DNA of 64,000 bases from NCBI GenBank assembly GCA_965226165.1, contig OZ245334.1, positions 629,947 through 693,946 of the forward strand, given 5' to 3'. This document shows positions 8,760-49,780 of the stretch, piece after piece. Within the stretch, counting starts at the first letter, position 1; the number at the start of each line of letters is the position of its first letter. The notes under the pieces are model-generated. The model was not told the DNA's origin. It saw nothing but the letters and a program-made list of their open reading frames with translations, and did no database searches. A program made the translations under genes and the position numbers. This stretch comes from Mycoplasmatales bacterium. Its GTDB lineage: Bacteria > Bacillota_I > Bacilli_A > CBDATW01.

Positions 8760-8795
8760 ATTAATTTCCTATAATCATTATTATTTTATCATATA

Positions 8796-11516: not shown

Positions 11517-11600
11517 ATAATTGCCACAAAACCCTTTAAATTTTAAATTATTTAGTATAATATAATATATTCAAAAAAGTTTGATTTGGATTAAAAGAGT

Positions 11601-12620: not shown

Positions 12621-12674
12621 AAATAATGTTATAATTTAATAAAAAAGTATATTAAACAAAATAAGGGATATAAG

Positions 12675-12923: not shown

Positions 12924-12936
12924 TAAGGAATAAAAT

Positions 12937-28712: not shown

Positions 28713-28748
28713 TTAAAGATATAAAATATTGTATGATATAATACTAAT

Positions 28749-28820
28749 GTCACAATAGTAACCTAAGAACCTGGTCAGATTAGAAATAAAGCAGCCATAA
28801 TTAGAAGTGCTATGTGTGAC
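28749..28820 (+). ncRNA. ffs: signal recognition particle RNA (small 4.5S/scRNA type)
   Basis: The domain IV motif CCTGGTCAG...AGCAGCCATAA is present. The ends pair (GTCACAATAG / CTATGTGTGAC) and a T-run follows. Its position upstream of tadA/dnaX resembles Bacillus scr. Confidence 0.7.
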
Positions 28821-28886
28821 TTTTTTATATATAATAATTTAATTAACAATAAATTCTATATATAAAAAATATAAAATGGTTTTAAG

Positions 28887-31818: not shown

Positions 31819-31820
31819 TC

Positions 31821-32393: not shown

Positions 32394-32395
32394 TT

Positions 32396-33034
32396 ATGTT
32401 TAAAAAGAAAAAAGGAATATTTATCACAATTGAAGGCACTGATGGTGCTGGCAAAACTACTTGCTTAAGCAAGGTTTATGATTTTTTAAAACAAAAAAAT
32501 ATTCAAGTAGAACAAACTAGGGAGCCAGGAGGAACTAAATTTGCTGAAGGAGTGAGAGATTTATTGTTAAATGAAGAAATTGATGCTGTCACAGAAGCGC
32601 TGGCTTTTGCAGCAGCAAGAAGAGATCATATTAAAAAATTTATTGAGCCTAACCTAAAAGCAAATAAAATAGTTTTATGTGATCGTTTTGTTGATTCTTC
32701 TTTTATTTACCAAACTTTTTCTAAAAAATTAAAAATTAATGATGTTATTACCATTAACCGCTTTGCTATTGAAAAACTATTCCCCGATTTAACCATTATT
32801 TTATTAGTAGAACCTAAAATTGCTTTACAAAGAAATGCTGATGATTTTAACAAAGAACTTAATCGCTTAGATAAAAGAGATGAATCTTTTTATCAAGCGA
32901 TTAATAATAGTTTTAAACAACTTGGTAAGGTGTTTAAAAAAAGAATAGTTTATATTGATGCTGATAATTTAACCATCAAAGAAATTACTAACCAAATCCT
33001 TGAAAAGATTAATCAACGTTTTAAGTTGTGGTAA
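32396..33034 (+). CDS. tmk: thymidylate kinase
   Basis: Contains FITIEGTDGAGKTT and DRFVDSS motifs. Confidence 0.9.
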   Translation: MFKKKKGIFITIEGTDGAGKTTCLSKVYDFLKQKNIQVEQTREPGGTKFAEGVRDLLLNEEIDAVTEALAFAAARRDHIKKFIEPNLKANKIVLCDRFVDSSFIYQTFSKKLKINDVITINRFAIEKLFPDLTIILLVEPKIALQRNADDFNKELNRLDKRDESFYQAINNSFKQLGKVFKKRIVYIDADNLTIKEITNQILEKINQRFKLW

Positions 33035-33063
33035 AATAAAAGAAAGAAAAAGAGGTGTTTAAG

Positions 33064-33489
33064 ATGTTTTTTAATTATTTTTATAACCATCATCATTGGG
33101 GTTGATCTTTTTTACCTTGACCATTTTTTGTTTTTATTATTTTATTTAAAATTGTTTTAATAGTAACAGTTATATCAATTATTATTATAGTTGTTAAAAA
33201 CTATAATATTAAAAATGCTAAAAATATGCAGTTATTAGAAGAGGAAATAAAAGAGGTTAAAGTGAAAACTAAAACTAAAAAAGAATATGAGATTCAAGTT
33301 CAAATTATAAGGCTTGTTAACAAAAGAAATAAAAAGATTATTTGGGGAGCAGTTAATGTTATTATCTTTTGATGACTATTATTTATTCCTTTAGTTATAG
33401 GAATTATGCAATTAAGTGAAATTCCTGATATTAATTCAGAAATTGAAATCTTAAAATTAAAAGCTGCTACATATAATAAGGAAAAATAA
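33064..33489 (+). CDS. hypothetical membrane protein (141 aa)
   Basis: Starts MFFNYFYNHHHWGWSFLPWPFFVFIILFKIVLIV.... Hand-translated through TGA codons. Confidence 0.4.
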
Positions 33490-33499
33490 ATAAATCATA

Positions 33500-34192
33500 A
33501 TGACAAAATTAATTCATGCTTATATTATTGAAAACCAAACAATAGCTAAATTAAAAGTTTTAACAAAAAACTTTGTTAAAACACTAATTTGTGATGATTT
33601 AAGTGATAAATGCTTAAAATGTTTAGCAATTGAAAATGAGCAAAATAGTAATGTTTTATATTTTGATGGTTTTAGTGAAAAAATTAAAAACCAAGATATT
33701 AAACTTGCTAAGGAATTTACTAGTTATAAAAATGATAGTCAAGAAATTAAAATAGTGGTTTTACATGGGTTTGAATATGCCACCAAAAAAGCAGCAAATA
33801 GCTTTTTAAAATATTTAGAAGACCCTTATGAACAAACCATTTTTATTATCACTACTGCTAATAAAAATTTGGTGCTACCCACTATTGTTTCTCGTTGTGT
33901 TGATGTTACTAATAAAAAAGAAGATATTAAAGTAGAAACTAAATACCAAGAAGAAATTAATCTTATTAAAGCAAAACAATATTGAGACATTAATTGAGCC
34001 AGTTTTAATAAAAATAATATTTTAGATTTTTTAATAACTTTATCTAATAATATTGATGTTAAAACTAATCCTTTATTTGTTAAAGGGATATTACAAATTA
34101 TTGATCAAGTTAAATCAAATGTTACTTATGATTTAGTATTAGCACAAATTTTAAAATTATGTGAAGAGATTAGTGATGGAAAAAGTAATTAA
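33500..34192 (+). CDS. holB: DNA polymerase III delta' subunit
   Basis: Starts MTKLIHAYIIEN.. and contains ANSFLKYLEDP and TIVSRC motifs. It extends through two TGA codons. Its position after tmk matches M. genitalium-type order. Confidence 0.75.
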
Positions 34193-34874
34193 TCATAACA
34201 ACTTCCCTAATTTATATCTTCTAGCGACTCCAATTGGAAATTTAAAAGATGTTTCAATTCGGTTAATTGAAACATTAGAATTAATTACTATTTTGCTTTG
34301 TGAAGATACAAGAAAAACAGGCCTATTATTACAAAAGTTAAATATTAAAAATAAACCTAAACTAATTAGATATGATGTTACTAATGAAAATAAAATAACT
34401 AGTAAAATAATTAACCTCTTTAAAGAACATCAAAACATAGGTTTATGTAGTAATGCAGGCACACCATTAATTTGTGATCCTGGCTTTCCTTTGGTAAGAG
34501 ACATTCAAAAATTAGATATTAATGTTGTTTCTATTCCTGGTCCAAATGCTTATTTAAATGCTTTAGTTGTTAGTGGTTTTCCAACTAATCATGTGTTTTT
34601 AGGTTTTATTAAAAATAAAGAATCACAGATTATTAAACAATTAAATGAGGCAAAGCAATATAAATTATCAATTGTTTTTTATGTCTCATGTTATAAGTTA
34701 TTAAAAACTTTAAAAATAGCTAATGATATTTTTAAAGATAAAGAAATTTTTATTGCTAAAGAATTAACCAAATTATATGAAACCCATTATCAAGGTGAAA
34801 TTAATGATGTTATAAAAAAATTACCACAAACTCTAAAAGGAGAATATGTGGTAATCATTAATAATGCAGGTTAG
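34176..34874 (+). CDS. rsmI: 16S rRNA 2'-O-ribose C1402 methyltransferase
   Basis: Contains LYLLATPIGNLKDVSIR..LCEDTR (tetrapyrrole-methylase fold). An alternative GTG start lies at 34161. Confidence 0.85.
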   Translation: MEKVINHNNFPNLYLLATPIGNLKDVSIRLIETLELITILLCEDTRKTGLLLQKLNIKNKPKLIRYDVTNENKITSKIINLFKEHQNIGLCSNAGTPLICDPGFPLVRDIQKLDINVVSIPGPNAYLNALVVSGFPTNHVFLGFIKNKESQIIKQLNEAKQYKLSIVFYVSCYKLLKTLKIANDIFKDKEIFIAKELTKLYETHYQGEINDVIKKLPQTLKGEYVVIINNAG

Positions 34875-35149: not shown

Positions 35150-35644
35150 TTAAAATAAATCAATAAAGGGATTTTCTATTTTCCTGTGTTTTAACAAATA
35201 TCGAAAGACCCGATTAGGGTTTATAGGTTTATTATAATACGTCTCAGGTAATTTAATTTTTTTTAATTTTTCATTTTTAAATAAATATGAATATGATTGA
35301 TTTTTGAAATTATAAATCTTTTCAATACAATCCAAATAACCATTTTTATTAAATGAAACATACCCATATTCAAATATTAGATCACACGATCCGCACAAAA
35401 TTAAAAAGTTATCCCAATCTCTCATTTCATATTTATTGCAAACACTATATTGCTTTATATGTGAAGCTCTTAAAAATTTTTTGTTAGAAAGACCACATAT
35501 CGCGCACTTCTTATGCAATTGTTTTAAATCATTAGCAGTTTTTGTGTGACCCTTTCTATAACTTGATAAATATTCTACTTTTTCTCCCAACTCTATTCTT
35601 CTTTTAGCTTCATTGCTTTCTTTATGAAACTTATATTTAATCAT
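35150..35644 (-). CDS. HNH (HNH_2-type) nuclease, third gene of the GHKL/Z1 operon
   Basis: Contains KCAICGLSNKKFLRASHIKQYS....WDNFLILCGSCDLIFEYGYVSF. Its start lies 21 nt after the Z1 stop. Confidence 0.7.
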   Translation of the reverse strand: MIKYKFHKESNEAKRRIELGEKVEYLSSYRKGHTKTANDLKQLHKKCAICGLSNKKFLRASHIKQYSVCNKYEMRDWDNFLILCGSCDLIFEYGYVSFNKNGYLDCIEKIYNFKNQSYSYLFKNEKLKKIKLPETYYNKPINPNRVFRYLLKHRKIENPFIDLF

Positions 35645-35665
35645 CTTTTCTTTGTCTCTAAAAGA

Positions 35666-37249
35666 TCATATTGTTTTATTTTGTATGATTTTTTGTTCCA
35701 CAAATTTTGCCTCATAATTTTTATTTTTATTTTTCAAACTATAATTATTTATTACATTTTCTATATTTGAAAATTCTTCTGTGTTTTTTGAAGAAACTTT
35801 ATCTATTAAATCATCTTTAATAATCCCAAACTTTTTATTTTTCAATAATTCTTCTGTTACTTTAATAATTTCATTTTCTTGCTTTTCTTTTTTTTTCAAA
35901 ATTTTGTCATTAAACAAATTTTTATATTTAGATTTATTCATATTGTAAAAATTAATAATTTCATCAATGTTGTTTCTTTCACAAACATTCTTTAATTCTT
36001 TATTTATTATTTTTATTTCTTTGTATTTCTTAATTAATTCTAATTCTAAATAAACATTTGGTTCTTCTTTTCTATAACCTAAAAATCTAGCATTTTGCAT
36101 TAATATATCATAATTAGTGTTTTTATTTTTTGAAATAATAATATCAGTTAATCCCTCAAATGTGTTTCCTCTAGAAAAGCAAAAACCTCCAATTAATATT
36201 TTCTTTTCGTTCTTTATAGTTTTAAAACTATTATGCTTGTCGTGCTTGTTTGAATTTATAATTAAAATATTGCTTTTTCTTAAATGCCATCATTTTGTTA
36301 ATTCTAATAACTGGTTTTTATTAATATTTAATGTTTCTTTATTTTTTTTTCTATTTGGAGTGTTATCATCTATGTATTTAACAAAAAAAAGCACTATCAA
36401 TTTTTTTATTTGCTTATGAAATTTTTGCTCAGTTTTTACATTTATCAAAAATTCATTGTCTTTTTTATTATCAAGTAGCCACTTAATCAAAACACTTATT
36501 ATTTTATTGCACTCTTTAATAGGCAATTGAATACCCAAATCTTCTATTTCTTTTTTAGAAAAAAATTCTTTTATTTGTATTTGGTTATAGTTGTCAAAAT
36601 TATGAAAACCCAAATATTTTTGGCCATATTCCAAAACACAAACCCCTTGTATATTTATATATTTTTGTGCATATTTAGAAAAAATATTTCAAAAAGGAGT
36701 TGCCGAAACACCAATATATTTTGAACCTTCATAATCAAACAAAGTGTTTAAGCCATAATCTATTAAATTATCTTTGCTTCAATAATCACATTCATCATCA
36801 AACACAACAATTTTTTTGTTTAATTCTTTAGCTTTTTTAACAATTCTTTTAAGGTCGTTTGTTTGTTTTTTTAAAAATATAATTTGTTTGTATTTCCTTC
36901 TATTAATAAAAATATCAATTTCCTCATTAATATAGCAATAGATATTATAATCATTATTATTGTAAGCTTTTTTAAATCTTGAAAATGTTTGATCATTCAG
37001 GGAATTTCTATCGCCTGTTAAAACAATTATTCATGAATAATTTTGTTCAAAAAATCAACCAGATAAATAAATCATATTGTTTGTTTTACCAGACTGGACA
37101 TCACCATATAAAACAATTCTGTTATTTTTATTAATTTCTTTTATAATTTTATTCAAATTTTTATCAAGAATTTTTTCAAAGTTTTCTTTTTGAATAGGAT
37201 CTTCAATTTTCTTTGATAGATTAAGCTTTAAGCTATTTAATATTTTCAT
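35666..37249 (-). CDS. Z1-domain P-loop/helicase-like protein (527 aa)
   Basis: Three track ORFs share one frame (1584 nt). Motifs: GDVQSGKTNN (Walker A), VFDDECDYW, GVSATPF, GGFCFSRGNTFEGLT and ARFLGYR (Z1 signature). Confidence 0.8.
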
Positions 37250-37262
37250 TTATTCAATTTTT

Positions 37263-39170
37263 TCATTCTTCTTCATTCTTGACTCTTTTACCTTCAAACA
37301 AAAGAACAATTATAAATGCAAGTACTGAGGCATTATAAAGTTTTTCTTTTCTATTTTCTGTTTGATCTTCATTGATTTCATCAAATGTAATATTTTTATG
37401 TGCATTAAATCTATATAATTTAACCTGTCTATCTCCAACTATATCTTTAAAATTTTTATTCAATTCATCTCTTTGTTCCTGACTAAAAGTTCCAGGGTTT
37501 TCTTCATAAAAAGTTTGTACAAACTTGTTTGGTTCATCAAAATTTTGTATTGTTAGGGTAGGCAAGGTTTCATCAATAAATTTTACACTTAATAAAATTG
37601 ACTTTTCTTCATCTTCATCAGCCATAGAAAAAAGTCATTCCTTAGGGGTTATATTAATTCTTGGAACCTCATTCATTTCACTTAAAGATCATTTTATTTT
37701 GCTATCATTAAAAAAAACTTTTGACCCATCATCATTTGAAAAATTGTCATTTCATTTTGTTAAATAAGCATTTGCAAAAAGAACAACATAATAAAGTTTC
37801 ATTTTTTTAAAAACTTCTTTATAAAAACAATCTTTTATTCTTTTAATTAATTCTTTGTCAAAATTTATTTTATTTTTTTCTGTCCTTATTTTATCATTTA
37901 TTGGTAAAATAATTTCTAAATCAAAATGTTCTAATTTTACTACCCCAGAACCACCCCTTTTTCCAACAAGGTTTTTAATTCACGATTTTTGAGGTATAGA
38001 TTTCTCCATAACATGAGGGCCCCTGTCATGTTGATATAATCTTATTCCTAAATTTTTCTTTCCCAAACTATTACTATTTTTTATTTCAATAGTTTTTCTT
38101 TTTGATGAAGAGTGTGGTATTCCAAATATTATTTTGAATGAATCTTCTTCATTCAAAAAACCATCTAAATCTGATATTCAATTAAAAGCTCATTTTAATT
38201 CTTCTCCTTTTTCAGAAGGAAGACTTAATAATTTTTTTCACATTAAGTTTAAATCATATTTTCTTCCATCAATTTGCCTTATATTATTGAATGTTGTATT
38301 ATCTTTTCACTCCAAAAATGATTCAAAAGTTTCAACAAATGATGTTTTTATCCAACCCACATTGTTCAAATATTCAAATTTTCTTTTAAGAATAGTTTCT
38401 CAATCTTCTTCATCACCAATTTTACAAAAAATATCAAGATTTTGTATAACAAAAAAATCTCTAGGAATCTTTTTTTCAATTATTCATTCATAATCAATAG
38501 TTTCAGTATTTTCAAATATATTTATTTTTATTTTTATTGCTTTGTTTGTTAAAAAATTTTTATAATACCTAATAGCCACAAAGTAACAAAATAATTGAAA
38601 ATTATCAATTTTAAAAATTTTATCTTTATCTTTTCTTTCATCATAAAAATCAAAAATTCTAATAAGCGTGCCTGTTGTTTCAAAATCACTTGTTATTCCT
38701 TTTATTTTTGAATGTTCAATTTCTCTAAACTTAATAATTCCTGAATAATCTTTCCATGTAGTGTCTGAATCATCTTTTGAATAATGAGCATTAACACACA
38801 ATGCCTTTTTAAAAATTTTGTTATTTTTATTAAAAGAAGAACTAAAAATTTGGCCTTGATATCCAAAAAATTGAATAGCATCTTTCATCCCCACATTATA
38901 TTCAGATTTAGTGTCTTTTAAGTTTTCTGAATATCTTGTTATTGCGGAATCTCATATTTCTTCCTTAATTCCTTCACCATTATCTTTTACTCATAAATGA
39001 TCTTCGTTTCAAAAAATTTCAATAATTAAATCTTTATTTTGTTGTTGATATTCTAAAGAATTGTCAATTAATTCACAAATAAAATATTTTCAAGGAATTT
39101 TACTTTTTTCTCCCTCGCTTCTCCATCTTGCTTTTTGATCAATTATAGCTTTATGCAGATCTCCTATCAT
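37263..39170 (-). CDS. GHKL-family (HATPase_c_3-like) ATPase (635 aa)
   Basis: The N-terminus MIGDLHKAIIDQKARW...FICELIDNSLEY...LWVKDNGEGI carries the Bergerat N and G1 boxes. I translated 37626..38483 codon by codon and found no TAA or TAG. Confidence 0.8.
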
Positions 39171-39491
39171 ACAAACCCCTTAAATATATTAATTATATCA
39201 ATACTATCACACCAGAATCTCCAACACAATATTTTTGAAAACATTTTCAATAATTTAAATAAAGTGTTAAAATAAAAATGTAGTTATGAGATAGAATTTA
39301 GTTATTAAATGTATATTAATAGTCATAGACTACATCAATTTAAAGTTTTAAATCTTTTTTTCAAATATTTTTTGTTATTAAGTTTTTATTTTTGTTTTTT
39401 CTTTTGAGAAGCTTTGAAGTTTTCATTTTTAGACTCCTTTTTTAAAAGTAAATGTTTTTGTTAATTTTAAATTAAAACTTAAATTGAACTC

Positions 39492-39525
39492 AAAAATAAC
39501 TTATTTTAATTAATAAGTTATTTTT
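39492..39525. repeat. perfect 14-bp-stem inverted repeat
   Basis: aaaaataacttatt / ttaatt / aataagttattttt, in the divergent spacer upstream of the GHKL operon. Confidence 0.6.
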
Positions 39526-39579
39526 TAATATATATAACTAAATTAAAGGGATTTTATATTAATGTATAATTAAGTTATT

Positions 39580-39795
39580 ATGAAGCGTCGACCTAGCGAT
39601 TATATTATTATTATATTTGTCATCATGTTTTTTGCAGTTGCTGCTTTTTACATCTTAGTTCCTTCTGGCCAAGATGGCATTTCTTTAATTGTGCAAAATA
39701 CAGTTAGAAGATATTTTTTTAATAATTTATGAGCTTGAATATTTGCTTTCTTTATTCTAGGAGGAATTATTTTAGTATCAATTCTTTTTTATTAA
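39580..39795 (+). CDS. hypothetical small membrane protein (71 aa)
   Basis: Translation: MKRRPSDYIIIIFVIMFFAVAAFYILVP...LWAWIFAFFILGGIILVSILFY. A TATAAT lies upstream. Confidence 0.3.
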
Positions 39796-39825
39796 AAAAG
39801 AAAAAGATAATGTTATAATTGCTTT

Positions 39826-39972
39826 ATGATTGGTCTTGGTGAAGTTTGAATTAGCTTTCTTGTATTTTGTTTTTTGGCCATTGTTTCCTGACCCTTTACT
39901 GAAAATACAATCATTACTATTTTAATTTCTTTTTTGTTAGCATCTTGATTCTTATTTTCTTCTGGAAAATAA
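39826..39972 (+). CDS. hypothetical small membrane protein (48 aa)
   Basis: Translation: MIGLGEVWISFLVFCFLAIVSWPFTENTIITILISFLLASWFLFSSGK. Weak call. Confidence 0.2.
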
Positions 39973-39979
39973 AAACAAT

Positions 39980-42138
39980 TTATTTTAAACCAACAATTTT
40001 TCTATATTGCATAATCTTGTGAAGAGGCATTTCTATCATAGGTGCTCATCTTAGATTGTTTATATGATTTACAAAATTAAGCCTATTATAAATATTTTTT
40101 CACTCTTCCTCTATTTCCAATTTTTCTTTTTCTATAATATTCATTAAGCCTTTAAATTTACCATTATTTCATTCATTTATTTTGTTTTCACTTAAACTCA
40201 ATATTACTTTTTTTTCAATTTGAAATCGTATTTGCATTGTCAACATATATTTATTTAAAACATAGTCAAAAAAACTTTCAATTTCATTTTTTGATTTATG
40301 TTTATAATTCAGAATGAAATCACTCACCGTTTTTTCCTTAATTGATTTATTTTTAAATAAAAAGTTCAAAGGACTATTGTTTTCTTGGAGCAAGTTAATT
40401 AGTTGCATAGGAGCGATTTCTTTAATTTCTTTTACAAGAACAAAGAACGACTTACTATTCGACCTTCAATGTCTATAGTTTTGGTCAATAAAATCTTTTA
40501 ATTTTTCTAAATCTTTTTTTTCTTCTTTGCTTTTTGCATTTAAAAAATAATTACTTGTAATTTCCCTCAATATTGTTGCAAACATCAATACAGTTTCTTT
40601 ACTACATTTGTCAAGGTTTTTGTCTTTCTTAAAATTAGTTGTCAACCATTTAGACATTTTTTTTAAAACATTAATATTAATTTCTTTTACAATAATGTCT
40701 GCTTGACTATATGAGTCCATAAAAAAGAATTTAGTATTATCATTATTTTTTGCAATTGCAAAATTACTTAACAAGTGATAATTATGAGTTAGTATTAAAA
40801 TGTTTTTGTTTTTATCAAAATTATTTATTATTTCAATAAAGATATTAATATTATCCAAATCCAAAGAGGAAACAGGATCATCAATTACTATGAAATCTTT
40901 TTCTTTTGCTTCAATTAAAGCAATTATTAAATACAAAATTTTTCTTTGCCCATTTGACCCGTACTCATTAAGTTCATCTTTTGAAATTGTTTTTGAATTA
41001 TTCTTATTTTCAAAAACAATATTAGTCTCTTCATAATAATTTTTAATTTCTTTAATCTTAATTGTTCACATTAAAGCATTTATTTTTAAACTTTCCTCAT
41101 TAATTTCTTTAGCAATTTCATTATAATTTTTAACAAAATTTTTATTTTCATTTATAATTTTTTTATGTTCAATTTGAAGCTGATCTTGATATTTTTTAAA
41201 TTCTCCTATTATAAGGCTATCCCACATTTCAATTAAAAAATTTTCTGCAATCTTTAATTCTGCTATTCCCCTCGTGGATAACTTTTCTATTTCCTTGTGA
41301 TTGCCTTTTAAATATCGCAACGCTAAATAAGCATCCCTATTAAGTTTACTAATTCCGTTTTCATTAAATTTTTCTTTAAGGTTCTCTTCAGCATTCTTTA
41401 TGTCGATTCAATGATTTTCATATTTATATTGAAAGTTTAGAGAACCAGACTCATTTATGTTTTTGATTAGTGGAAAATCTCTGTCAAGATTTTTGTTAAA
41501 ATATTTTCCAACCTTATCATCTAACTTGTTAAATTTTATCCTTTTATCAACCTTAGTAGCTTTTTTAATTGCATCTATTTTGTTTTTATATAATTTAATC
41601 TTATCAAAAAGATCTTTATCAATGTGCTTGGGGCTTTTTAGTAAAATTTTATTTTCAATATCCTTTATTTCCTCTATGTTTTTATTAGGATTATTAACTA
41701 TTTTTTTAATTATCTTAGATATTTCGCTTTGATTGTCAATTTCTTTATTATCAAAAAAAATTGAATACTTAATTTTTAACTCTTTAAAAACTTTTTCAAT
41801 AATTTTAAAATATCCTACATGTAAATCACTATTTATAGAAAATATTATTTTTTTGTTAACTTGATTTTTGATTAAATCACTATTTTCGCTATTTTTAATT
41901 TCATCAAGAAAATTTTCATCTATTATAAATATTTGATTACTTTTTATATCAATTTGAATAAAATCTTTATTAACCGTTCCTTCTAATGAAGTTTTAAAAA
42001 TTTTTTCTTTCAAACCTTTGAAACCTTTTGTTATGCTTGTTTTTCCAACCCCATTTGGTGCAAATATTATATTTTTTCACTTAAGTCAAAATTTATTTCA
42101 TCTTTTAGACCATAAAGATTTTTTATTTTCAATTTCAT
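39980..42138 (-). pseudogene. AAA_13/ABC-type (PrrC/RloC-like architecture) ATPase, N-terminal 23 codons out of frame at an A6 tract
   Basis: MKLKIKNLYGLKDEINFDLSEKI-stop is in one frame. NIIFAPNGVGKTS (Walker A) is in the next. Track ORFs 41408, 41066, 40466 and 40169 share that second frame through TGA. Signature and Walker B read GSNGQRKILYLIIAL...FIVIDDPVSSLD. The 3' end near 39980 was derived by hand. Confidence 0.6.
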
Positions 42139-42270
42139 TATAACTTCTTTTTTTTATTTCCAATCTTATGAATGCCCTTCTTAAATTATAAAAAAAATGT
42201 TTAAAAACTTCATTTAAAAATTGAAAATTTCTTAAAAATTTGTTTTAATTAATTAAGGAACGCTAGACTC

Positions 42271-42849
42271 ATGGAACGAAAATTAAAAGATATGATTTCT
42301 CAAGAAATGGTTTTATGAAGAGATCAATCAAGGAGACACAACTTTTCACCAAAAGGGTGAATAATATCAGAAATAGTAAAAAATTATTATAAAGATTTTT
42401 TCAAAAATAAAGAAGAGTTTAATATTAAAGAATTTTGTAAAAAGTTAGAATTAGAAGTAGAAAAAATAGATTTAAATTTTAACAGTCTAGACAAAAATAT
42501 TTGAGGAATGCTGGATCGAAAAAACAAAAAAATTTATATTTCTGAACATTTGAAAAATGAACAAACCATAAGATTTACAATAGCACATGAATTAGCTCAT
42601 TTTTTAATAGACCAAAATGAAACCAATGATATATATTATAGAGATAGAATTAATATTGGTAAAGAAGTAATATATAATGATTTTGCTGCAAGTTTTTTAG
42701 TTGATATCAAACAAATTCAAGATTATATAGACAATAAAAAATTAACTTTTCGAGAATTATCAAAAAATTATAAAGTTCATTATGAAACAATCGGCATTTT
42801 AATTGACCAAGAGTTAAGAAAAAGAAAAAAAATAAATCAAATTAAGTAA
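42271..42849 (+). CDS. ImmA/IrrE-family (COG2856-like) zinc metallopeptidase, no HTH domain (192 aa)
   Basis: Contains ..KKIYISEHLKNEQTIRFTIAHELAHFLIDQ (HEXXH). The ATG at 42271 is in frame with track ORF 42508 through three TGA codons. Confidence 0.75.
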
Positions 42850-42851
42850 TT

Positions 42852-43421
42852 ATGGCATTATCTAAGAAAGAATTAAACAAAATTAAAGAATTAGAAGATG
42901 AAATAAAAAGACTTGATTGAAGATTAAGAAGACAAGAGAAAATTTTATATGATAAAAATACTGAAATTAATGAATATCTTTCTAAATATAACTCATTTCA
43001 ACAAAAAATTGAATCAGAATTTACTATTCTTAAAAACTCTAAAGAAATTGAATCGAAATTTCTATATGAAAACTCAAGATCAAATTTGCACACAATTACT
43101 ATTTTTTCATTTATTTTAATTCTGTCATTAACTATTTTGAATTCTATAATAATAAACAGGCTTGATAAATTTCAAATTAAAATTAAAGATGGAAAAGAAA
43201 TTATTGAAAAAACATATGATGGAAATGCAATAAATACAATAATTTCATTTTCATATGCATATGCTCTTCTTGGTTTTTTCACAATCTTCATTGTTTCAAA
43301 GCTATTTGATAGCTTGTGAAAATTTAAAGACAAAAAAATTTTAACAACAATAACCATAATATTTGTGAATTTATCAATAATTTGAATAGCAATTTTGTTA
43401 TATTTACTTTTTATTAAATAA
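42852..43421 (+). CDS. coiled-coil plus three-TM membrane protein (189 aa)
   Basis: It starts 3 nt after the peptidase stop. MALSKKELNKIKELEDEIKRLDWRLRRQEKILYD... is followed by three hydrophobic helices (ITIFSFILILSLTILNSIII, ISFSYAYALLGFFTIFIV, IIFVNLSIIWIAILLYLLFI). Confidence 0.55.
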
Positions 43422-43523
43422 AAATTAAATTTCTATAATAAATAATACAAAAAACATAATATAATAAAAAATATTTATATTTAATATATATTTTTAGTAT
43501 AATATTTACAAATGAGGTGTAAA

Positions 43524-44819
43524 ATGAATAAAAATAACAAAGCAAACAAAATAATTTCTTTGAAAGCAAAAAATGTTTTTTCGTTTTATGATGAAACGAA
43601 AATATCTTTTTTGGGAAAGACAAGAAAAAAAGATAAAAAAAGTTTTTATCAATTTTTAAACAAAAAAAATCAAGTGAACATTTCTAACATAAATGGTATT
43701 TTTGGAATTAATTCATCAGGTAAAACAAACCTAATAGTTAAAACAATTCAAAAACTTAAAAACATAATAAAATCAAAAAGTGTTGAAAAAGAGTTGTTAG
43801 ATGTACCCTTTTTTAATTCGAGTAATAAAGAATCAACCATAGCTTTAGAATTTCTAACATCAGCAAAATTTTATTATTTTGAAATCAAATTTAAAAATAA
43901 CAAAATCACACATGAAAAACTTTCTTTTAAAGAAAAAAAAGTTAATAAATACCAAAATATTTACAAAGTAGAAAATAATAAGTTTTATTTAAAAAACAAA
44001 TTTATTAACAAAATAGAATTAAAAGATGAAACAATAATTGGCAATACAAGTTTATTTAATATGTTTTTGTATAAAGAAAAGATTGAAGCATCAACAAAAA
44101 GAAAACATATTGAATTAGTAAAAGACTTTGTTATAAATAAAATTCATTTATTAACGCCAGAAACAATTAGTTTTGAAGAAACATTATCAAAACTAGCAAA
44201 TAAATCTTATGTATTTCAAAAATTTAATAACATCGCTAAAGAAATAAATTTAGGTTTTGAAAAAATTGAATGCGAATTAAATGAGGTTATAACTAAGGAT
44301 TTTAAAATGGAGCAAAAAGAAAATGGTTTTTCTTTCTTTTCTGCAAAAGACAAAGTCGTTAAAAAAATTTCTCCTAAATTTTATAGATCAATAGATACTG
44401 ATAAATACGAATTAATTCCTAAACTTGCAAACACCTTATCTAGTGGAACTATTCAATTTATTGAAACTATAGTATTTTTACTAGATGCTGTTGAAAGCAA
44501 TCATATTTTAATTTGAGATGAATTTGGCAGTTTTCTTGATGATGAATTAATAGAAGCTATATTTGAAATCATTGCTAATAATGACTCAGTACAATTAATT
44601 TTTAATTCTAATAAAAAATCAATTATTTCAAAGCTAGATTGAAACCAAATTTTTATTGTTAAGTTAAATAGGCATTGAGAATCTAGTTTAATAGAAAGAA
44701 ACTATTCAAGAATTCAACAAGTGGAAATAGAAAAGAAATATCGAAACAATTACTTTGGCAATCTTAATAATTTTAATGTGATAAGTATTCTCAAACATTT
44801 TGATAAAGCATTTGGTTAG
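43524..44819 (+). CDS. soluble ABC-type ATPase (AAA_15/AAA_21-like, 431 aa)
   Basis: GAGGTG RBS and an upstream TATAAT. Motifs: GINSSGKTN (Walker A), LSSGTIQF (signature) and HILIWDEFGSFLD (Walker B, after a TGA). Confidence 0.8.
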
Positions 44820-44824
44820 CTTTT

Positions 44825-45406
44825 ATGAAAAAAGTAAAAAGTAAAATTGATATTTCATTTTATGTTGAGGGACAAGTTGAACAATGATTAATAAATTTTA
44901 TTAATGAAGAGTTTTCATTCCATAAAATTTGCAATATAAAAAATCCTGAAGTTACTAAATATAAAAAAAATATTGAATATATAATTCAAAAAGTTTATAA
45001 ATTAGAAAAATTTAATGAAAACAAACACTTAAAACCAATAGTTATTTTAATTTATGATAACGAAGTAAAGGTTTCAAAAATATACAAAAATATACACCAC
45101 ATTCATATTAACAAACCATCAATTGATTATCCAATTGCATTATCATTAGGAATAAAAGCTAACAAAAATGATCAAGTTAGAAAAATAAAATCAAAAATAA
45201 AGATAAAATATAAAACTACAAAACAAAACTATTTAAGAGAAAAAAGATTAAAAGATGATATTAACTATAATATTTTGTTTAATCATTTAGGAAAATTAGG
45301 TTTGTTTTTCAAACATTTAATTAATATTTTAAATAAAAATAAAAATGCTAACCAAAGCAAAGTGAATGAAACAATAAAAAAAATAGCACTTAAAGTGTTT
45401 AAATAA
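44825..45406 (+). CDS. small DUF4276/RloB/Toprim-like partner protein (193 aa)
   Basis: It starts 5 nt after the ATPase stop and is absent from the track (TGA at codon 21, no later ATG). MKKVKSKIDISFYVEGQVEQWLINFI resembles the DUF4276 N-terminal VEGxTE motif. A later IVILIYDNE acidic patch is present. Confidence 0.5.
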
Positions 45407-45464
45407 ATCTATTATTTTTTATTTAAAAATGAAATAATATTTATAGGTGATAAAGGAGATATAT

Positions 45465-46472
45465 ATGAGTGTAAAAATTAATATATATGATAGCAAAAAA
45501 CATGATGTAAAATTTTTTACTAAATATAATAAAGATAATTATCAATTAAATTTTTTAGAATATAAAATATCTAAAAATATGAACCTAAATCAATTCAAAA
45601 AAGATTTAAAAGATGTAGACATTATTGTTGTTTTTGTTAATGATGATGTTTCTAAAGAAACAATTCAAGTTTTAAAAGAAACAAATGTTAAATTGATTGC
45701 TACAAGATCAGCTGGATTTAATCATATTGATTTAGATGCAGCAAAAGCAAATGATATTAAAGTGGTAAGAGTGCCAGAATATTCACCCCACTCAATTGCA
45801 GAACATGCTATTGCCTTGCTTTTAACAATTAATCGTAAAACCCATCGGGCTTATTTAAAATCAAAAATGAATGATTTTACTTTAGATGGTTTAATTGGTT
45901 GGGATTTATATGGCCAAACTATTGGAGTATTTGGCTATGGGAAAATTGGTAAAATTTTTGCTAACATTATGAAAAGCTTTGGTTGTAAAGTCATAGTTAA
46001 CTCTTTACCAAGTGATAAGGAGGCAATTATTAAAGACGGGCATCAATTTGTTGATTTAAAAACCTTGTTTGCAAAATCAGACATCTTATCTCTTCATTCA
46101 CCATTAACTCCTGACACTAAGGAAATTATTAATAAAAAAACCATATCCTATATGAAAAAAGGCATAGTTTTAATTAATACTAGTCGAGGAGGTTTAATTA
46201 ATTCTAATGATTTAATTGATGGTTTAAGAAAAAACATTATTTCTTTTGTTGGTCTTGATGTTTATAGTAATGAAGCCAATTATTTTTTTGAAGATAAATC
46301 AAAAGATAATATTAATGATCCAATTTTAATGCAATTATTACAATCTAATAAAGTTTTAATTACACCTCATTCAGCCTTTTTTACTAATAATGCATTAACC
46401 CAAATTGCCAAAGTTACGCTTTTTAATATCAAGCAGTTTTTAAACAAACAAAAATTAGATAATCAACTATAA
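45465..46472 (+). CDS. D-isomer-specific 2-hydroxyacid (D-lactate) dehydrogenase
   Basis: AAGGAG RBS. Contains GVFGYGKIGKIF (NAD fold) and NTSRGGLI motifs. Confidence 0.85.
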   Translation: MSVKINIYDSKKHDVKFFTKYNKDNYQLNFLEYKISKNMNLNQFKKDLKDVDIIVVFVNDDVSKETIQVLKETNVKLIATRSAGFNHIDLDAAKANDIKVVRVPEYSPHSIAEHAIALLLTINRKTHRAYLKSKMNDFTLDGLIGWDLYGQTIGVFGYGKIGKIFANIMKSFGCKVIVNSLPSDKEAIIKDGHQFVDLKTLFAKSDILSLHSPLTPDTKEIINKKTISYMKKGIVLINTSRGGLINSNDLIDGLRKNIISFVGLDVYSNEANYFFEDKSKDNINDPILMQLLQSNKVLITPHSAFFTNNALTQIAKVTLFNIKQFLNKQKLDNQL

Positions 46473-46530
46473 AACATTTCTTTTATTTTTAAAAAATGTA
46501 AAATAAATATCATATAAAGGTTATATATTT

Positions 46531-47088
46531 ATGAACAAAGATATAAAAATTGATAAAAGAATAAAAGAAGTTTTATTTTGAGAAGATGAAATCATCACTA
46601 AAATTAGAAGTTATGGAAAAGTAATTGATGATTATTATAAAGATAAAGAAGCACCAATATTTTTAGGAATTTTAAAAGGATGTGTCTTATTTTATACCCA
46701 CCTAATAACAGCAACAACTATTGAATCAGAAACAGAGTTTATTAAGGTTTCAAGTTATAAAAAAACTAAAATTAAAAGCAATATTAATATTCAATGAGAT
46801 TTATCAACTCCAATAATGGGAAGAAATATTTTAATTATTGAAGATGTTGTTGATAGTGGAAAAACCTTAATGAAACTATCTGCACTTTTAAAACTCCATG
46901 GGGCTAAGGATATTAAAATCATTACTCTTTTAGATAAACCTAAGGGTCGCAAAGTTGATTTAAAAGTTGATTGAGCACTTTTTACCTTAACTAATGTTGA
47001 TCAATTTGTTGTGGGATGAGGTTTTGACCTTGATGAAAAAATGCGCAATCTCCCTTATATTGGTCTTTTAAAAGAAGAATATGAGTAA
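46531..47088 (+). CDS. hpt: hypoxanthine phosphoribosyltransferase
   Basis: Hand translation through four TGA codons gives ILIIEDVVDSGKTL (PRPP motif) and ..VVGWGFDLDEKMRNLPYIG. Confidence 0.85.
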
Positions 47089-47719
47089 TCAAAAGTTATT
47101 AGAAAAATATTGTGATTTAATTTTAAAATATAACAAAATTCATATGTTGACAGGTTTTAAAAATAAAGAAAATGTTTTTAATTATTTATTTTTAGACTCA
47201 ATTAAAAGCTTTGAAAATATTGATTTAACAAATAAAAAACTTTTAGATGTAGGAACAGGGGCAGGAATTCCTGGAGTAGTTTTAAAAATAAATAATCCTG
47301 ATGTTGATTTGACTGTGATTGAAAGTTTAAATAAAAGGGTAAAATTTTTAGAATCATTAAATTTTGCTGATTTTAAAATTTATAATCAAAGAGCAGAAAT
47401 AGTTAAAGATAGTTTAATTGAGCAATTTGATATTGTTACCACAAGAGCTTTTTATAATTTAGCAATGAGTTTAGAAATTTTAGCAAAATATTGCAAGGTT
47501 AATGGTTTAATAGTTTTAATTAAAGGAAAATCAGTCGATTTAGAAATAAAGAAAAGTAGTGAAATAGTTAAAAAATTACACCTTAAATTAATTAAAACTA
47601 CTAGTCATAAAATTAATGATTTAACAACCAAGGTTTTAATTTATCAAAAATTAAAAGCAACGCCAACAATCTATCCAAGAAGTTTTGCTAAATTAAAAAG
47701 ATTAAGGAATAATCACTAA
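47081..47719 (+). CDS. rsmG: 16S rRNA m7G527 methyltransferase
   Basis: 212-aa ORF with LLDVGTGAGIPG. Confidence 0.85.
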   Translation: MSNQKLLEKYCDLILKYNKIHMLTGFKNKENVFNYLFLDSIKSFENIDLTNKKLLDVGTGAGIPGVVLKINNPDVDLTVIESLNKRVKFLESLNFADFKIYNQRAEIVKDSLIEQFDIVTTRAFYNLAMSLEILAKYCKVNGLIVLIKGKSVDLEIKKSSEIVKKLHLKLIKTTSHKINDLTTKVLIYQKLKATPTIYPRSFAKLKRLRNNH

Positions 47720-47775
47720 TTTATAGTTTTAATGATAAAATAATAAGGAAATTTAATATTAAGTAGGAATAATAG

Positions 47776-48543
47776 ATGGGAAAAGTTATTGCAATTTCAA
47801 ACCAAAAAGGGGGAGTTGGCAAAACGACAACAGCAATTAATTTGGCTGTTGCATTGTCAAGAAAAAAGAAAAAAGTTTTATTAATTGACCTTGATGCTCA
47901 ATGCAATGCCACCACTGGTTTAGGGCTTGATCCTTTAAAAAATAGTAACCTATTAAAAGTTTTGCAAGGTGAAAAAATTATTAATGAAATTATTCATCAT
48001 AAGATTTTAAAAAACTTGGATTTTATTGAAAGTTCTCAAGAAGTTGCTAGTCTTGATTTAACAATGGCTCAAGAAGAAAAACCTCAACTTTACTTGAAAA
48101 GTATTTTAGCACCCATTAAAGATAAGTATGATTTTATTATCTTAGATTGTCCACCTTCGCTAGGAATTTTAAATGCTATGGCATTAACTGCATCTGATTC
48201 AGTTTTAATCCCTATTCAAACAGAGCATTTTGCCTTAGAGGGGATTCAACAATTATTTTCAACAATAAGGTTAGTCCAAAGGTTATTTAATAAAAACTTA
48301 GGTATTGAAGGCATCTTAATTACAATGTATGATGCTAGAACTAATTTATCAAAAGAAATTAAAGACATTATTTATAGTACTTTTGACTCTAAAGTTTTTA
48401 AAACTTTTATTCCTCGTAATATTAAACTTGCAGAAGCTCCCTCATTTGGTAAAAGCATTTTTGATCATGATAAAAACTCCCAAGGAGCTAAATGTTATTT
48501 TCGTTTGGGACTAGAAATTATAAAAAATAATAAAAAAAGGTAA
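47776..48543 (+). CDS. parA: chromosome partitioning ATPase ParA/Soj
   Basis: Contains KVIAISNQKGGVGKTTTAINLA (deviant Walker A). Confidence 0.9.
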   Translation: MGKVIAISNQKGGVGKTTTAINLAVALSRKKKKVLLIDLDAQCNATTGLGLDPLKNSNLLKVLQGEKIINEIIHHKILKNLDFIESSQEVASLDLTMAQEEKPQLYLKSILAPIKDKYDFIILDCPPSLGILNAMALTASDSVLIPIQTEHFALEGIQQLFSTIRLVQRLFNKNLGIEGILITMYDARTNLSKEIKDIIYSTFDSKVFKTFIPRNIKLAEAPSFGKSIFDHDKNSQGAKCYFRLGLEIIKNNKKR

Positions 48544-48548
48544 TTAAA

Positions 48549-48866
48549 ATGATTTATAAAGACAAGCTGCCAAAGCCAACTAAAGAAGAGAAAAAATATT
48601 ATAAAACAATGCATTCTTATCACATCACTGTTAAGGGAAGCATTTTTATGGGACTTTTAATTTTTCCCATTGTTTTTTTCACAATCACCCTTCCTCCAGA
48701 AGAAAAACCAAATATTGGATGAGTTTATGTTATTTGGGGCGTTTCTTTTGCTATCAATTTAATTACCATGTGGGTTTTGCACAAAAGAGTTAAAAAAATG
48801 GAAAAAGAAATTGATTTTTATGTTATTAAAAGAAAACCTAATAAAAATGATGATGATAAAAAATAG
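48549..48866 (+). CDS. hypothetical membrane protein between parA and parB (105 aa)
   Basis: Translation: MIYKDKLPKPTKEEKKYYKT...GLLIFPIVFFTITLPP...WVYVIWGVSFAINLITMWVL. Confidence 0.4.
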
Positions 48867-48919
48867 CATTAAAATTAAAAAAAGAGTAAAATTAATGAAA
48901 AGAATAAAGGATTATAATA

Positions 48920-49780
48920 ATGACTAAATTTGATCGTTCTGGTCTTGAAGCAATTTTTGGTAAGGGTTTAAAAGAAGCAATGCAAGACATTGAAAATTAC
49001 CAAAAAAAATCAAGTGCCAACAAACCAACCCTAATTCCTATTAAGTTAATTAGAACCAATCCTTATCAACCTAGAAAGTTTTTTGATAAAGAAAAAATTG
49101 CCAAATTAGCCCAATCAATTAAAGCAAATGGTTTAATTCAACCAATTTTAGTTATTAAAGATGTTAAGGGTTATATTCTAGTAGTTGGGGAAAGAAGACT
49201 TCGCGCCCATCAATTAAACAAACAAAAAGAAATTTTAGCAATAGTTGCCAGTATTAAACAAAAACAACTGCAAAGTTTAGCTTTAATTGAAAATATTCAA
49301 AGAGAAGATTTAAATCCGATTGAAGAAGCGGTGGCCTTAAAAGAAATTTTAAATACCCAAAAAATTACTCAAGAAAAATTGGGATTAGAAATTGGAAAAT
49401 CTCGCTCTTATATTACTAATAGTTTAAGATTATTAACTCTTCCAAAAGAAGTGCAAAAATTGGTTATTAATAATGACTTAAGTGTTGGCCATGTTAAAGT
49501 TTTACTTGGTTTAGATGATGAATTTCAAATTATGGAACTTGCTAAAAAAATTATTTATGATGAATTAAGTGTAAGAGATTTAGAAAAACTAATTGTTACA
49601 ATTAATAAAAAATCATTACCAAGAAAAACTTATAAAAATAATGAACTTGAATATGTTGAAGATATTTTAAGAGATAAACTTGATACAAAAATTATTGTTT
49701 CAAAAAATAATATTAATATCAGATTTAATAATTACCAGGATTTAAATCGAATTTTAAAATTATTAAAAATTATTAAATAA
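48920..49780 (+). CDS. parB: chromosome partitioning protein ParB/Spo0J
   Basis: Contains IRTNPYQPRKFF, LVVGERRLRA and IENIQREDLNPIEEA motifs. Confidence 0.85.
   Translation: MTKFDRSGLEAIFGKGLKEAMQDIENYQKKSSANKPTLIPIKLIRTNPYQPRKFFDKEKIAKLAQSIKANGLIQPILVIKDVKGYILVVGERRLRAHQLNKQKEILAIVASIKQKQLQSLALIENIQREDLNPIEEAVALKEILNTQKITQEKLGLEIGKSRSYITNSLRLLTLPKEVQKLVINNDLSVGHVKVLLGLDDEFQIMELAKKIIYDELSVRDLEKLIVTINKKSLPRKTYKNNELEYVEDILRDKLDTKIIVSKNNINIRFNNYQDLNRILKLLKIIK

Follow-up and report, generated by a model that had tools for sequence, protein, structure and literature searches.

Judged by their sequences, two adjacent genes in a 64,000-nucleotide stretch of DNA from a bacterium of the Mycoplasmatales (the whole stretch is called the window below) form a translationally coupled pair that moves as a unit and consists of a catalytically intact zinc peptidase of the ImmA/IrrE type and a small membrane protein; the former is distantly homologous to RmrA and CapP, and the latter represents an orphan family without detectable homology to known toxins. 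By analogy with the RosmerTA systems, the pair may be an autonomous, horizontally exchanged toxin-antitoxin or abortive-infection cassette that carries a new membrane toxin, a reading to which we assign a probability of about 0.5. The pair is most likely a new member of the known RosmerTA class and not a new kind of system.

Both genes were read with genetic code 4, in which TGA encodes Trp. This code was adopted in place of translation table 11 because TGA interrupts both genes when ORFs are called with the latter, and it is justified by TGA codons at conserved Trp positions, namely the universally conserved Trp of the GyrB motif QLWETTMDP and the invariant Trp of the NIWGM motif in the peptidase family, the latter in all five loci. 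The resulting ORFs, of 192 aa for the peptidase and 189 aa for the membrane protein, have coordinates identical to those given for the two genes in the initial annotation (Table 1). The TAA of the peptidase gene ends at 42849 and the ATG of the membrane protein gene begins at 42852, leaving a spacer of 2 nt. Upstream of the pair, direct reading of the leader gives a candidate promoter, TTGAAA (42221-42226) and TTTAAT (42244-42249) with a 17-nt spacer, and a Shine-Dalgarno-like AAGGA (42255-42259) lying 11 nt before the peptidase ATG. The promoter is held with low confidence because it was not flagged in a consensus scan, which accepts only -10 hexamers with A as the second base. No ORF of at least 35 aa fits into the leader.

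Table 1. Coordinates in the window of the peptidase-membrane protein pair and its context, with operons of the same layout found elsewhere
Feature	Position	Strand	Basis
5′ leader/intergenic region of the pair	42164..42270	+	read directly from sequence
Standalone ImmA/IrrE-type Zn-metallopeptidase (Peptidase_M78), putative RmrA-like antitoxin/sensor	42271..42849	+	ORF, family matches, invariant catalytic residues, fold model, alignment with Kita RmrA, dN/dS
Three-TM membrane protein, orphan family, putative membrane toxin/effector	42852..43421	+	ORF, searches, alignments, model, hydropathy/charge, dN/dS, heptad test
ABC/AAA-type ATPase, 727 aa, divergent (context, outside the module)	39980..42163	-	AAA_21 above cutoff
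AbiL-like two-gene system, directly downstream of the pair (context)	43512..45406	+	PADLOC AbiLi 1.1e-33
Standalone M78 and small TM protein operons: L023 Dakarella, L059 Sutterella, L060 Sulfurospirillum, L064, L071, L073, L082			

The peptidase matches the Pfam family Peptidase_M78 (PF06114) through residues 78-174 (E=1.2e-9, 38.4 bits, cutoff 22). Its best profile match overall is the metallo-protease family PHROG 87 (3.4e-15), and its best match among PADLOC models is capP (2.4e-14); eight PADLOC models of RmrA are also matched (1.9e-6 to 4.7e-3). H106, E107 and H110 of the HEXXH motif and E132 are invariant among four aligned peptidases, and the fifth, from the locus L085b, keeps HEIGH and the Glu on inspection by eye. 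E132 is presumably the third zinc ligand, a candidate role that we take over from IrrE. The AF2 model of the peptidase has a pLDDT of 80.5 and a pTM of 0.82, and its top PDB matches in Foldseek are PprI (8sln), CapP (7t5t) and IrrE (3dti), with E-values of 1.4e-4 to 9e-4 and TMq of 0.44-0.51; a search of PDB sequences with the peptidase profile gave no match. An N-terminal helix of the peptidase carries the motif KGxIxxIV, and the gene is under purifying selection (dN/dS 0.35-0.44). The family match above cutoff, the invariant HEXXH and the IrrE/CapP-like fold bear out the original description of a standalone ImmA/IrrE peptidase. The same description held that no HTH is fused or adjacent to it, and this also agrees with the present results: the Pfam scan found no HTH family match at E≤1 and no HTH of the XRE type in the peptidase, and the neighbouring gaps contain no HTH-like ORF. 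Small ORFs were translated from the 107-bp upstream gap and from the equivalent gaps of related loci to look for a missed HTH gene, and none was found; in three of the six copies of the pair this gap is only about 100 bp long.

The membrane protein has hydrophobic segments at 82-100, 130-148 and 169-187 by hydropathy. A charged N-terminal helix (residues ~1-80), placed in the cytoplasm by the positive-inside rule, leads into TM1, an outside loop of ~30 aa that includes a beta-hairpin, TM2 with a Y-A-x-x-G motif, a K-rich inside loop and TM3. The AF2 model consists of a helix (5-103), a beta-hairpin (107-120) and two further helices (124-157 and 161-188), and its pTM is 0.29. The N-terminal stretch is a helix of 60-80 aa with 36-44% KRDE that is essentially free of Pro and Gly. 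This protein had been described as a cytosolic coiled coil of ~80 aa followed by three TM helices; the three TM helices and the long charged helix stand, and the coiled coil is weakly suggested by an enrichment at heptad a/d positions that exceeds shuffled sequences (p~0.02-0.06) in three of five family members but not in the other two. In alignments of the family the N-terminal helix is the most variable part and TM1, the loop and TM2 are conserved, and members have the TM hairpin with or without the third TM helix. Purifying selection acts on this gene as well (dN/dS 0.19-0.45).

The family is narrow. Word-indexed searches, an exhaustive phmmer search of 1.84 billion representatives, profile searches, and searches of phage genomes and IMG/VR leave five distinct members only, among them that of L085b, which was found by its context. 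P0007, a protein of 1180 aa with seven short matching stretches, was set aside as a seemingly low-complexity match. PADLOC models gave no credible match and no toxin model for any of the five members; those of typeIV_DinG, Cmr6, LeoBC and PbeC, each matched by a single member at E-values of 0.003-0.05, were dismissed. Kinship with DUF2951 (small membrane proteins of staphylococcal phages) and PHROG 276 was likewise rejected, and the similarity is treated as compositional, since the DUF2951 match stays below threshold (21.6 bits, cutoff 26.7) and is seen in one member of the five. Fold searches of the model against PDB and BFVD returned nothing with an E-value below 0.6, and such matches are meaningless at a pTM of 0.29.

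The two genes recur together in five further copies in related metagenomic genomes, two of them as paralogs in one genome (L085). The order, peptidase and then membrane protein, is the same in six of six copies, and the junctions measure +2, 0, -1 or -8 nt. Identity values of one protein track those of the other (r=0.89), and each protein yields the same three subtypes. The conserved order and this coupling in five further copies make the pair more than a chance arrangement, and the coupling of the two genes first suggested by their spacing is upheld by the tight or overlapping junctions together with the co-divergence. Across the six copies the peptidase has a single invariant partner, the membrane protein.

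The pair is part of a hypervariable defence island, the other genes of which differ between strains. Its neighbours in the window are a Z1/SNF2/HNH and GHKL ATPase group, an AAA ATPase and AbiL, and those in related loci include a DpnII restriction-modification system, GmrSD, a DUF4011 helicase and, in L085, a CRISPR array next to a Cas13-like gene, the product of which has 818 aa and a double RNxxxH motif. Between the window and L001, which represent strains of one species, DNA identity is 95-97% in the flanks and only 68% in the pair, and synonymous divergence is 0.9-1.3 for the pair as compared with 0.11 for ldhA and 0.31 for parA. A search with GyrB yielded no relatives of the host, and the ParA matches listed, at 41-51% identity, are spread over many phyla. 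In L001 a direct repeat of 98 nt brackets the pair, and a 157-aa fragment of Peptidase_S78 (prohead protease) follows right after it. The downstream neighbour is the housekeeping gene hpt in L002 and L085b, and in L085 it is the Cas13-like gene on the same strand. A scan of all listed ORFs of at least 80 aa in 35150-45406 found no HTH protein and no integrase, the window contains no tRNA, and the seven island proteins scanned against PADLOC matched AbiL, R-M-like and ATPase models and no CBASS model.

The two genes that flank the pair in the window are not constant companions. The divergent ATPase scores 18.5 bits against AAA_13, below the cutoff of 36, and passes that of AAA_21. Its candidacy as a co-travelling partner was rejected because tblastn detects no homolog of it in L001-L004 or L085, and the earlier suggestion that the pair regulates this gene has no support from conservation, the ATPase being absent from all five related loci. 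Downstream, the AbiLi ORF (43512-44819) probably starts at ATG 43524 after GAGGTG and is followed by a 193-aa partner (44825-45406). AbiL has a promoter-like site of its own (43474-43503) and an RBS; of the loci L001, L002, L004 and L085, only the first has it together with the pair. The gap between the pair and AbiL shows no terminator or structured RNA (fold z-score +1.4, no Rfam match).

The closest functional precedent is the RosmerTA system of Gordonia phage Kita, which comprises RmrA-D25 (YP_009301393.1) and RmrT-D5 (YP_009301394.1) (Ernits et al., 2023; PMC10440598). RmrT-D5 depolarises membranes, RmrA neutralises RmrT at least partly, and together they protect against Bas54 and Bas59; the only domain listed for RmrA is Peptidase_M78, and an N-terminal HTH is described as often present on RosmerTA antitoxins and not as obligatory (Ernits et al., 2023; PMC10440598). 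It did not prove possible to delete rmrA, for which toxicity may be the reason (Millman et al., 2022; bioRxiv 10.1101/2022.05.11.491447). The Kita genes g32 and g33 were equated with the published accessions on domain content and gene order; genes 43-45, of which g44 has an HEXXH, were discarded, as no TM segments occur in their neighbours and g32/g33 agree with what was published. Kita RmrA has 178 aa, and no HTH region was seen in its sequence; RmrT has 119 aa, with a soluble N-terminus and two C-terminal TM helices, and the two genes overlap by 4 nt.

The peptidase of the window aligns with Kita RmrA in BLASTP at 28% identity over 88 aa of the catalytic core (E=3e-6), and the two share the same pattern of PADLOC matches. 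In both systems the antitoxin gene comes first, the peptidase is an HTH-less M78 protein of about 180-190 aa, the junction is tight or overlapping, and the partner is small with C-terminal TM helices. The window protein differs from Kita RmrT in its length, in a much longer charged helix and in its third TM helix, and hhalign gives a probability of 0.3% for their relationship; RmrTs are a diverse set by their very definition, and Kita RmrT itself matches no PADLOC model. The Kita pair is borne by an actinophage, whereas the window copy belongs to the chromosome of a low-GC, code-4 bacterium, and function has been assayed for Kita alone. Compared with the PADLOC models of RmrA, which span 360-400 aa, the peptidase aligns only with the C-terminal peptidase part (for example 191-278 of 383) and lacks the N-terminal region, an HTH according to the description by Ernits et al. 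The tentative label Rosmer-like of the initial annotation is the best match, the peptidase being homologous to RmrA and the layout being that of Kita RmrTA; the membrane protein shows no detectable homology to any known RmrT.

If the pair works in the manner of RosmerTA, the membrane protein would be the toxin, would oligomerise, perhaps via its N-terminal helix, and would depolarise or permeabilise the membrane. The peptidase would serve as the antitoxin and hold this protein in check as long as the cell is uninfected, through binding or through cleavage of the cytoplasmic helix. Phage infection would lift this control and lead to death or arrest of the infected cell ahead of phage release. 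The toxin role is assigned purely by analogy, since no homology of the membrane protein was detected to Kita RmrT, PADLOC models, the partners of other peptidases or PDB and viral folds.

The order of control might also be the reverse, which we regard as unlikely: a signal-activated M78 peptidase would cleave the N-terminal helix of its partner and free a pore-forming TM core, following the pro-toxin logic of gasdermins. All characterised M78 relatives work by signal-triggered cleavage, and the fold comes closest to those of ssDNA-bound PprI (8sln), CapP (7t5t) and IrrE. A strictly conserved catalytic site is needless for simple neutralisation by binding, and a variable helix set against a conserved TM1-loop-TM2 fits a removable pro-domain that co-evolves with its protease. 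However, the RosmerTA peptidase behaves as an antitoxin, as judged by the unobtainable rmrA deletion and the partial neutralisation of RmrT by Kita RmrA, the helix of the membrane protein shows no conserved cleavage motif, and the peptidase lacks the GAF-like domain of IrrE and CapP. An M78 peptidase that is activated by phage or DNA damage and cleaves its own membrane partner would amount to a protease-gated pore in wall-less bacteria, one without an HTH repressor step, at equally long odds; in a weaker version of this idea, the orphan family may represent a structurally new membrane toxin.

Somewhat more doubtful still is a regulatory role of the CapP/ImmA type, in which the peptidase would cleave an unlinked HTH repressor and thereby induce AbiL, the Cas13-like gene and the AAA ATPase, with the membrane protein as an anchor, sensor or inhibitor. 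The capP model as the best PADLOC match, the position of the pair upstream of AbiL (window and L001) and of the Cas13-like gene (L085) on the same strand, and its divergence from the AAA ATPase in the window speak for such a role. The M78 fold is indeed shared with CapP and IrrE/PprI (Foldseek E-values of 1e-4 to 5e-4, TMq about 0.5), but, unlike in CapH/CapP and IrrE/PprI-DdrO, no HTH gene of the CapH/DdrO type adjoins the peptidase in any locus (six of six copies) and the C-terminal GAF-like domain is missing, the protein having 192 aa as compared with 240-280 aa for CapP/IrrE chains and matching the capP profile at positions 14-134 of 242 only. The pair also departs from CapH/CapP in that no CBASS match occurs among the neighbours scanned and that its conserved partner, the only invariant one, is a membrane protein. 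The inconstant downstream neighbour (hpt in L002 and L085b), the absence of the AAA ATPase from related loci and the independent promoter-like site and RBS of AbiL argue in the same direction. Quite improbable is a relic of prophage or ICE lysogeny, that is, an ImmA-like anti-repressor that has lost its repressor, together with a superinfection-exclusion protein. The peptidase resembles ImmA of ICEBs1 and ImmA-like anti-repressors of phages in being a small, standalone M78 protein of comparable length that strongly matches PHROG 87, its best profile match; moreover, the Kita system is phage-borne, and the prohead protease fragment follows the pair in L001. Unlike ImmR/ImmA of ICEBs1, however, the pair has no adjacent repressor or integrase and lies outside any recognisable mobile element. 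Neither an integrase nor a tRNA nor any other phage gene lies in the window island, searches of 50,697 phage genomes and of IMG/VR gave no relatives of the two proteins, every copy has both genes intact and under purifying selection, and superinfection exclusion would itself count as defence.

If the RosmerTA-like reading is correct, a new, lineage-restricted family of membrane toxins would be added to the network of RosmerTA and ImmA-type antitoxins, and such cassettes would be kept and exchanged even in Mollicute-like, code-4 genomes of about 0.75 Mb, in which each gene is costly. The locus is a clean natural example of a defence hotspot, with conserved flanks, divergent cassettes and two paralogs in one genome. 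The small size of the two proteins and the lack of an HTH on the peptidase make the pair a simple system for the question of whether RosmerTA toxins are neutralised by binding or by cleavage. No new principle is involved, the architecture having already been validated in phage Kita and recurring across phyla.

This recurrence was seen in a survey of 78 M78 loci, the output of a GTDB scan with the peptidase profile, which consists of generic M78 proteins at 23-40% identity. The lack of an HTH on an M78 peptidase, taken as unusual in the initial annotation, proves to be ordinary: Kita RmrA has none, and 49 of the 78 surveyed genes encode standalone M78 proteins. We know of no experimental test of the partners in the seven unrelated loci listed in Table 1, and the membrane protein family of the window resembles them neither in sequence nor in profile comparisons (at most 6 bits with HMMs, a probability of 1.8% in hhalign). 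Among the 49 standalone genes, 16 have a tightly linked small TM neighbour, and the seven loci (of 78) have the same layout as the window pair, with a partner that starts with a charged helical N-terminus and continues with TM helices. In these partners the N-terminus measures 35-80 aa and is followed by two TM helices (three in L073) and a short charged tail.

The window has a G+C content of about 25%, and under translation table 11 its long ORFs are broken by TGA only, whereas re-calling with table 4 yields uninterrupted genes throughout, including dnaA, dnaN, gyrB and gyrA at 20-27 kb. Code 4 is correct because TGA stands both for the Trp that is universally conserved in GyrB (QLWETTMDP) and for the Trp that never varies among the peptidases; under this code the boundaries proposed for the peptidase and membrane-protein (TM) genes in the initial annotation are exact.

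Features of the window, with strands and product lengths as read under code 4
Feature	Position	Strand	Remarks
Two overlapping ORFs	13265-16049	-	340 aa (two repeated halves) and 595 aa (NPPY motif)
Bacterial small SRP RNA	28739-28833	+	RF00169, 52 bits
rsmI	34161-34874		island boundary
Z1 + SNF2/ResIII + HNH protein; GHKL (HATPase_c_3) protein	35150-39170	-	699 aa and 645 aa, 17-nt overlap
Hairpin	39492-39525		single copy, 2.7 kb upstream of the pair
Two-TM ORF	39580-39795	+	71 aa, MKRRPSDYIIIIFVIMFF...
AAA_21/AAA_13-like ATPase	39980-42163	-	727 aa
M78 peptidase	42271-42849	+	192 aa
Membrane protein	42852-43421	+	189 aa; start after 2-nt spacer
AbiL-like system	43512-45406	+	AbiLi, PADLOC 1.1e-33
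ldhA	45447-46472		island boundary
Large ORF	56579-63289	-	2236 aa, N-terminal hydrophobic segment

For the peptidase, Peptidase_M78 scores above its Pfam cutoff (E=1.2e-9; 38.4 bits vs 22), and among PADLOC models it matches capP (2.4e-14) and eight models of RmrA, the M78 antitoxin of the RosmerTA toxin-antitoxin class (best 1.9e-6). Its catalytic site is intact, H106, E107, H110 and E132 being invariant across relatives. The nearest folds to its AF2 model (pLDDT 80.5, pTM 0.82) are PprI/IrrE (8sln, 3dti) and CapP (7t5t), with E of about 1e-4 and TMq of about 0.5; no PDB relative was found at the sequence level. The capP profile is covered at positions 14-134 of 242 only, so the protein has no room for the GAF-like domain that IrrE and CapP carry, and no HTH family was detected in it.

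Hydropathy places the TM segments of the membrane protein at 82-100, 130-148 and 169-187, and by the positive-inside rule its N-terminus is cytoplasmic, because the loop after TM2, or the C-terminal tail in two-TM versions, is K-rich. A Cys pair conserved in the TM1-TM2 loop of one subtype would agree with this latter loop being outside. AF2 gives a single helix over residues 5-103, a beta-hairpin at 107-120 and then two helices (pLDDT 75.7, pTM 0.29). The coiled coil proposed initially was borne out only weakly: heptad periodicity exceeds that of shuffles in three of the five family members but not in the other two. In alignments of the family, conservation centres on TM1, TM2 with its Y-A-x-x-G motif, and the loop between them; two members lack TM3, and variation is greatest in the N-terminal helix.

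This TM family is an orphan. The query recovered only itself in a word-indexed search of 5.8 billion proteins; exhaustive phmmer against 1.84 billion representatives gave one real relative, a profile search added two members, and the fifth, L085b (see below), was detected through genomic context only. No PADLOC model matched the family, and a fold search of the model in PDB and BFVD returned nothing. A similarity to DUF2951, below threshold and seen in one of the five members only, was rejected. By analogy, these proteins may be toxins of a new orphan family, and their host is an unusual one.

The coupling of the two genes, as originally observed, was confirmed and recurs in relatives. Three homologs of the peptidase (40-54% identity), found in ENA metagenome assemblies on 716-788 kb contigs from related small genomes, each directly precede a 160-180 aa protein of like design. 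One related genome, L085, carries two paralogous copies of the pair (8329-9507 and 14307-15435; 39% and 25% identity between copies), one upstream of ldhA and the other, L085b, between ldhA and hpt; the latter belongs to the same subtype as the copy in the related locus L002, that with the Cys pair. The peptidase/TM junctions are +2, 0, -1 or -8 nt, and an apparent 56-nt gap in L004, a contig with 1.4x coverage, is a frameshift effect. Pairwise identities of peptidase and partner co-vary (r=0.89) and yield the same three subtypes, and dN/dS values of 0.35-0.44 (peptidase) and 0.19-0.45 (TM protein) show that purifying selection acts on the two genes.

In RosmerTA, the ImmA-protease node D25 is a hub antitoxin with diverse toxin partners; its N-terminal HTH is 'often' present and its gene order is variable (Ernits et al., 2023, PMC10440598). 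The system of Gordonia phage Kita, which consists of RmrA-D25 ('Peptidase_M78') and RmrT-D5 ('Transmembrane'), has been validated: RmrT-D5 depolarises and permeabilises membranes, and the pair protects against Bas54 and Bas59 (PMC10440598). Judging by domain content and gene order, its genes are g32 and g33 of KU963257. The former encodes 178 aa with 'RFTCAHELGHF...NEFAANLL' and no HTH; the latter, overlapping it by 4 nt, encodes 119 aa that begin with a soluble region and end in two TM helices. The window pair is built in the same way. The catalytic cores of the two peptidases align (28% identity, E=3e-6) and both show the same PADLOC order, capP first and RmrA next, whereas homology between the two membrane proteins is undetectable (hhalign probability 0.3%); Kita RmrT matched no PADLOC model. 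The RmrA matches, this alignment and the like layout uphold the Rosmer-like part of the initial interpretation. The lack of an HTH, regarded there as unusual, is shared by g32 and is common: among 78 generic M78 loci taken from GTDB genomes, 49 peptidases are standalone, 16 of them with a tightly linked small TM neighbour. In seven surveyed loci (Dakarella, Sutterella, Sulfurospirillum and several Bacillota) the peptidase is followed by an overlapping protein of 120-190 aa whose N-terminus is helical and charged and which has two or three TM helices; no homology was found between these partners and the window family. Kita and the survey therefore indicate that a standalone M78 peptidase with a small membrane protein is a recurrent design, validated once already.

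The pair lies in a 10-kb island between rsmI and ldhA that is made up of four modules: the Z1/SNF2/HNH and GHKL proteins, the AAA ATPase, the pair itself and the AbiL-like system. As none of the related loci has a homolog of the AAA ATPase, this is not a partner of the pair, and the earlier idea that the pair regulates it is not supported. In the AbiL-like system the true AbiLi start is likely the ATG at 43524, preceded by GAGGTG, and the second gene (193 aa) matched no AbiLii, Pfam or PADLOC model. The Z1/SNF2/HNH and GHKL proteins resemble a restriction-like defence pair; their counterparts in L085 (45% and 37-39% identity) include two paralogs of the GHKL protein.

The window and the related locus L001 represent essentially one species, with ParA identical at 254/255 residues. 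Their flanks (30227-34864 and 45402-49317) share 95-97% DNA identity, whereas the island (35150-45406) differs in content or reaches only ~68% DNA identity (pair, AbiL). For the AbiL-like system, identities of 51% and 49% to L001 are also given. Synonymous divergence is 0.9-1.3 for the pair, 0.11 for ldhA and 0.31 for parA. Because the pair is far more diverged than flanks, ldhA and parA, its versions are old alleles swapped like cassettes at a hotspot, not fast-evolving orthologs. This sharp defence hotspot, some 15-25 kb from dnaA, has rsmI on one side and ldhA-hpt-rsmG-parAB on the other; in relatives it holds DpnII R-M, GmrSD, a DUF4011 helicase, a prohead-protease fragment and a CRISPR array with a Cas13-like gene. 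A direct repeat of 98 nt (7733-7830 and 9174-9271, 82% identity) flanks the L001 pair on both sides and contains a perfect 34-nt hairpin, AAAAATAACTTATTTTAATTAATAAGTTATTTTT, also present in the window; it may serve as the site at which cassettes are exchanged by recombination, or as a terminator. The 71-aa two-TM ORF, which has no family match, is separated from the pair by the AAA ATPase gene in the window; its L001 counterpart (93% identity) comes right after the pair, and those in L004 and L085 (36% identity) come right before it.

We give a probability of about one half to the best supported reading, a RosmerTA-like toxin-antitoxin or abortive-infection cassette, in which the membrane protein would be the toxin and the peptidase would restrain it until infection. 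The genes themselves, how they are coupled, their conservation and joint divergence, the intact active site, the topology in the membrane, the place in a defence island and the exchange as a cassette are shown; toxicity, neutralisation, trigger and defence role are here inferred by analogy. The peptidase might instead be an activating sensor that cleaves the helix of its membrane partner, which we consider unlikely, or, with slightly lower probability still, a CapP/ImmA-type regulator whose target is an unlinked repressor; no HTH ORF, the possible oversight raised by the initial annotation, was found accompanying the pair, nor was a tRNA, integrase, terminator or Rfam element. Least probable is that the pair is left over from the lysogeny module of a prophage, with a superinfection-exclusion protein as its membrane component. 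The match of the peptidase to phage metallo-protease PHROG 87 (3.4e-15) speaks for this reading; against it, searches of phage genomes and IMG/VR found no relatives of the TM family. Between pair and AbiL, L001 has a 157-aa Peptidase_S78 (HK97-type prohead protease) fragment (9538-10011), absent from the window; this is either what remains of a phage or a decoy within the defence island.

In L085 (ENA ERZ25073789 ctg148855, 788-kb contig), the region 9592-13061, directly downstream of one pair copy, begins with an ORF of 818 aa. This ORF has two HEPN/Cas13-type motifs (R-N-x-x-x-H), at about residue 133 toward the N-terminus and near the C-terminus, and is followed by a CRISPR array of ~14 copies of a 36-nt repeat, GTTTTGATCCCGTGCAAATTAGCACCGGACAGAAAC, with a 66-nt period. 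The ORF product matched nothing in Pfam, PADLOC or PDB sequences and is a candidate type VI effector, compact and divergent, from a Mollicute-like genome. The type VI-B accessory proteins known so far are membrane proteins, so its position next to the M78/TM pair may or may not be due to chance. Within the 64-kb window no tRNA genes were found, and the SRP RNA is the sole Rfam match. By eye, the overlapping 340-aa and 595-aa ORFs look like a type I R-M specificity subunit and methyltransferase, and the 2236-aa ORF may encode a surface protein.
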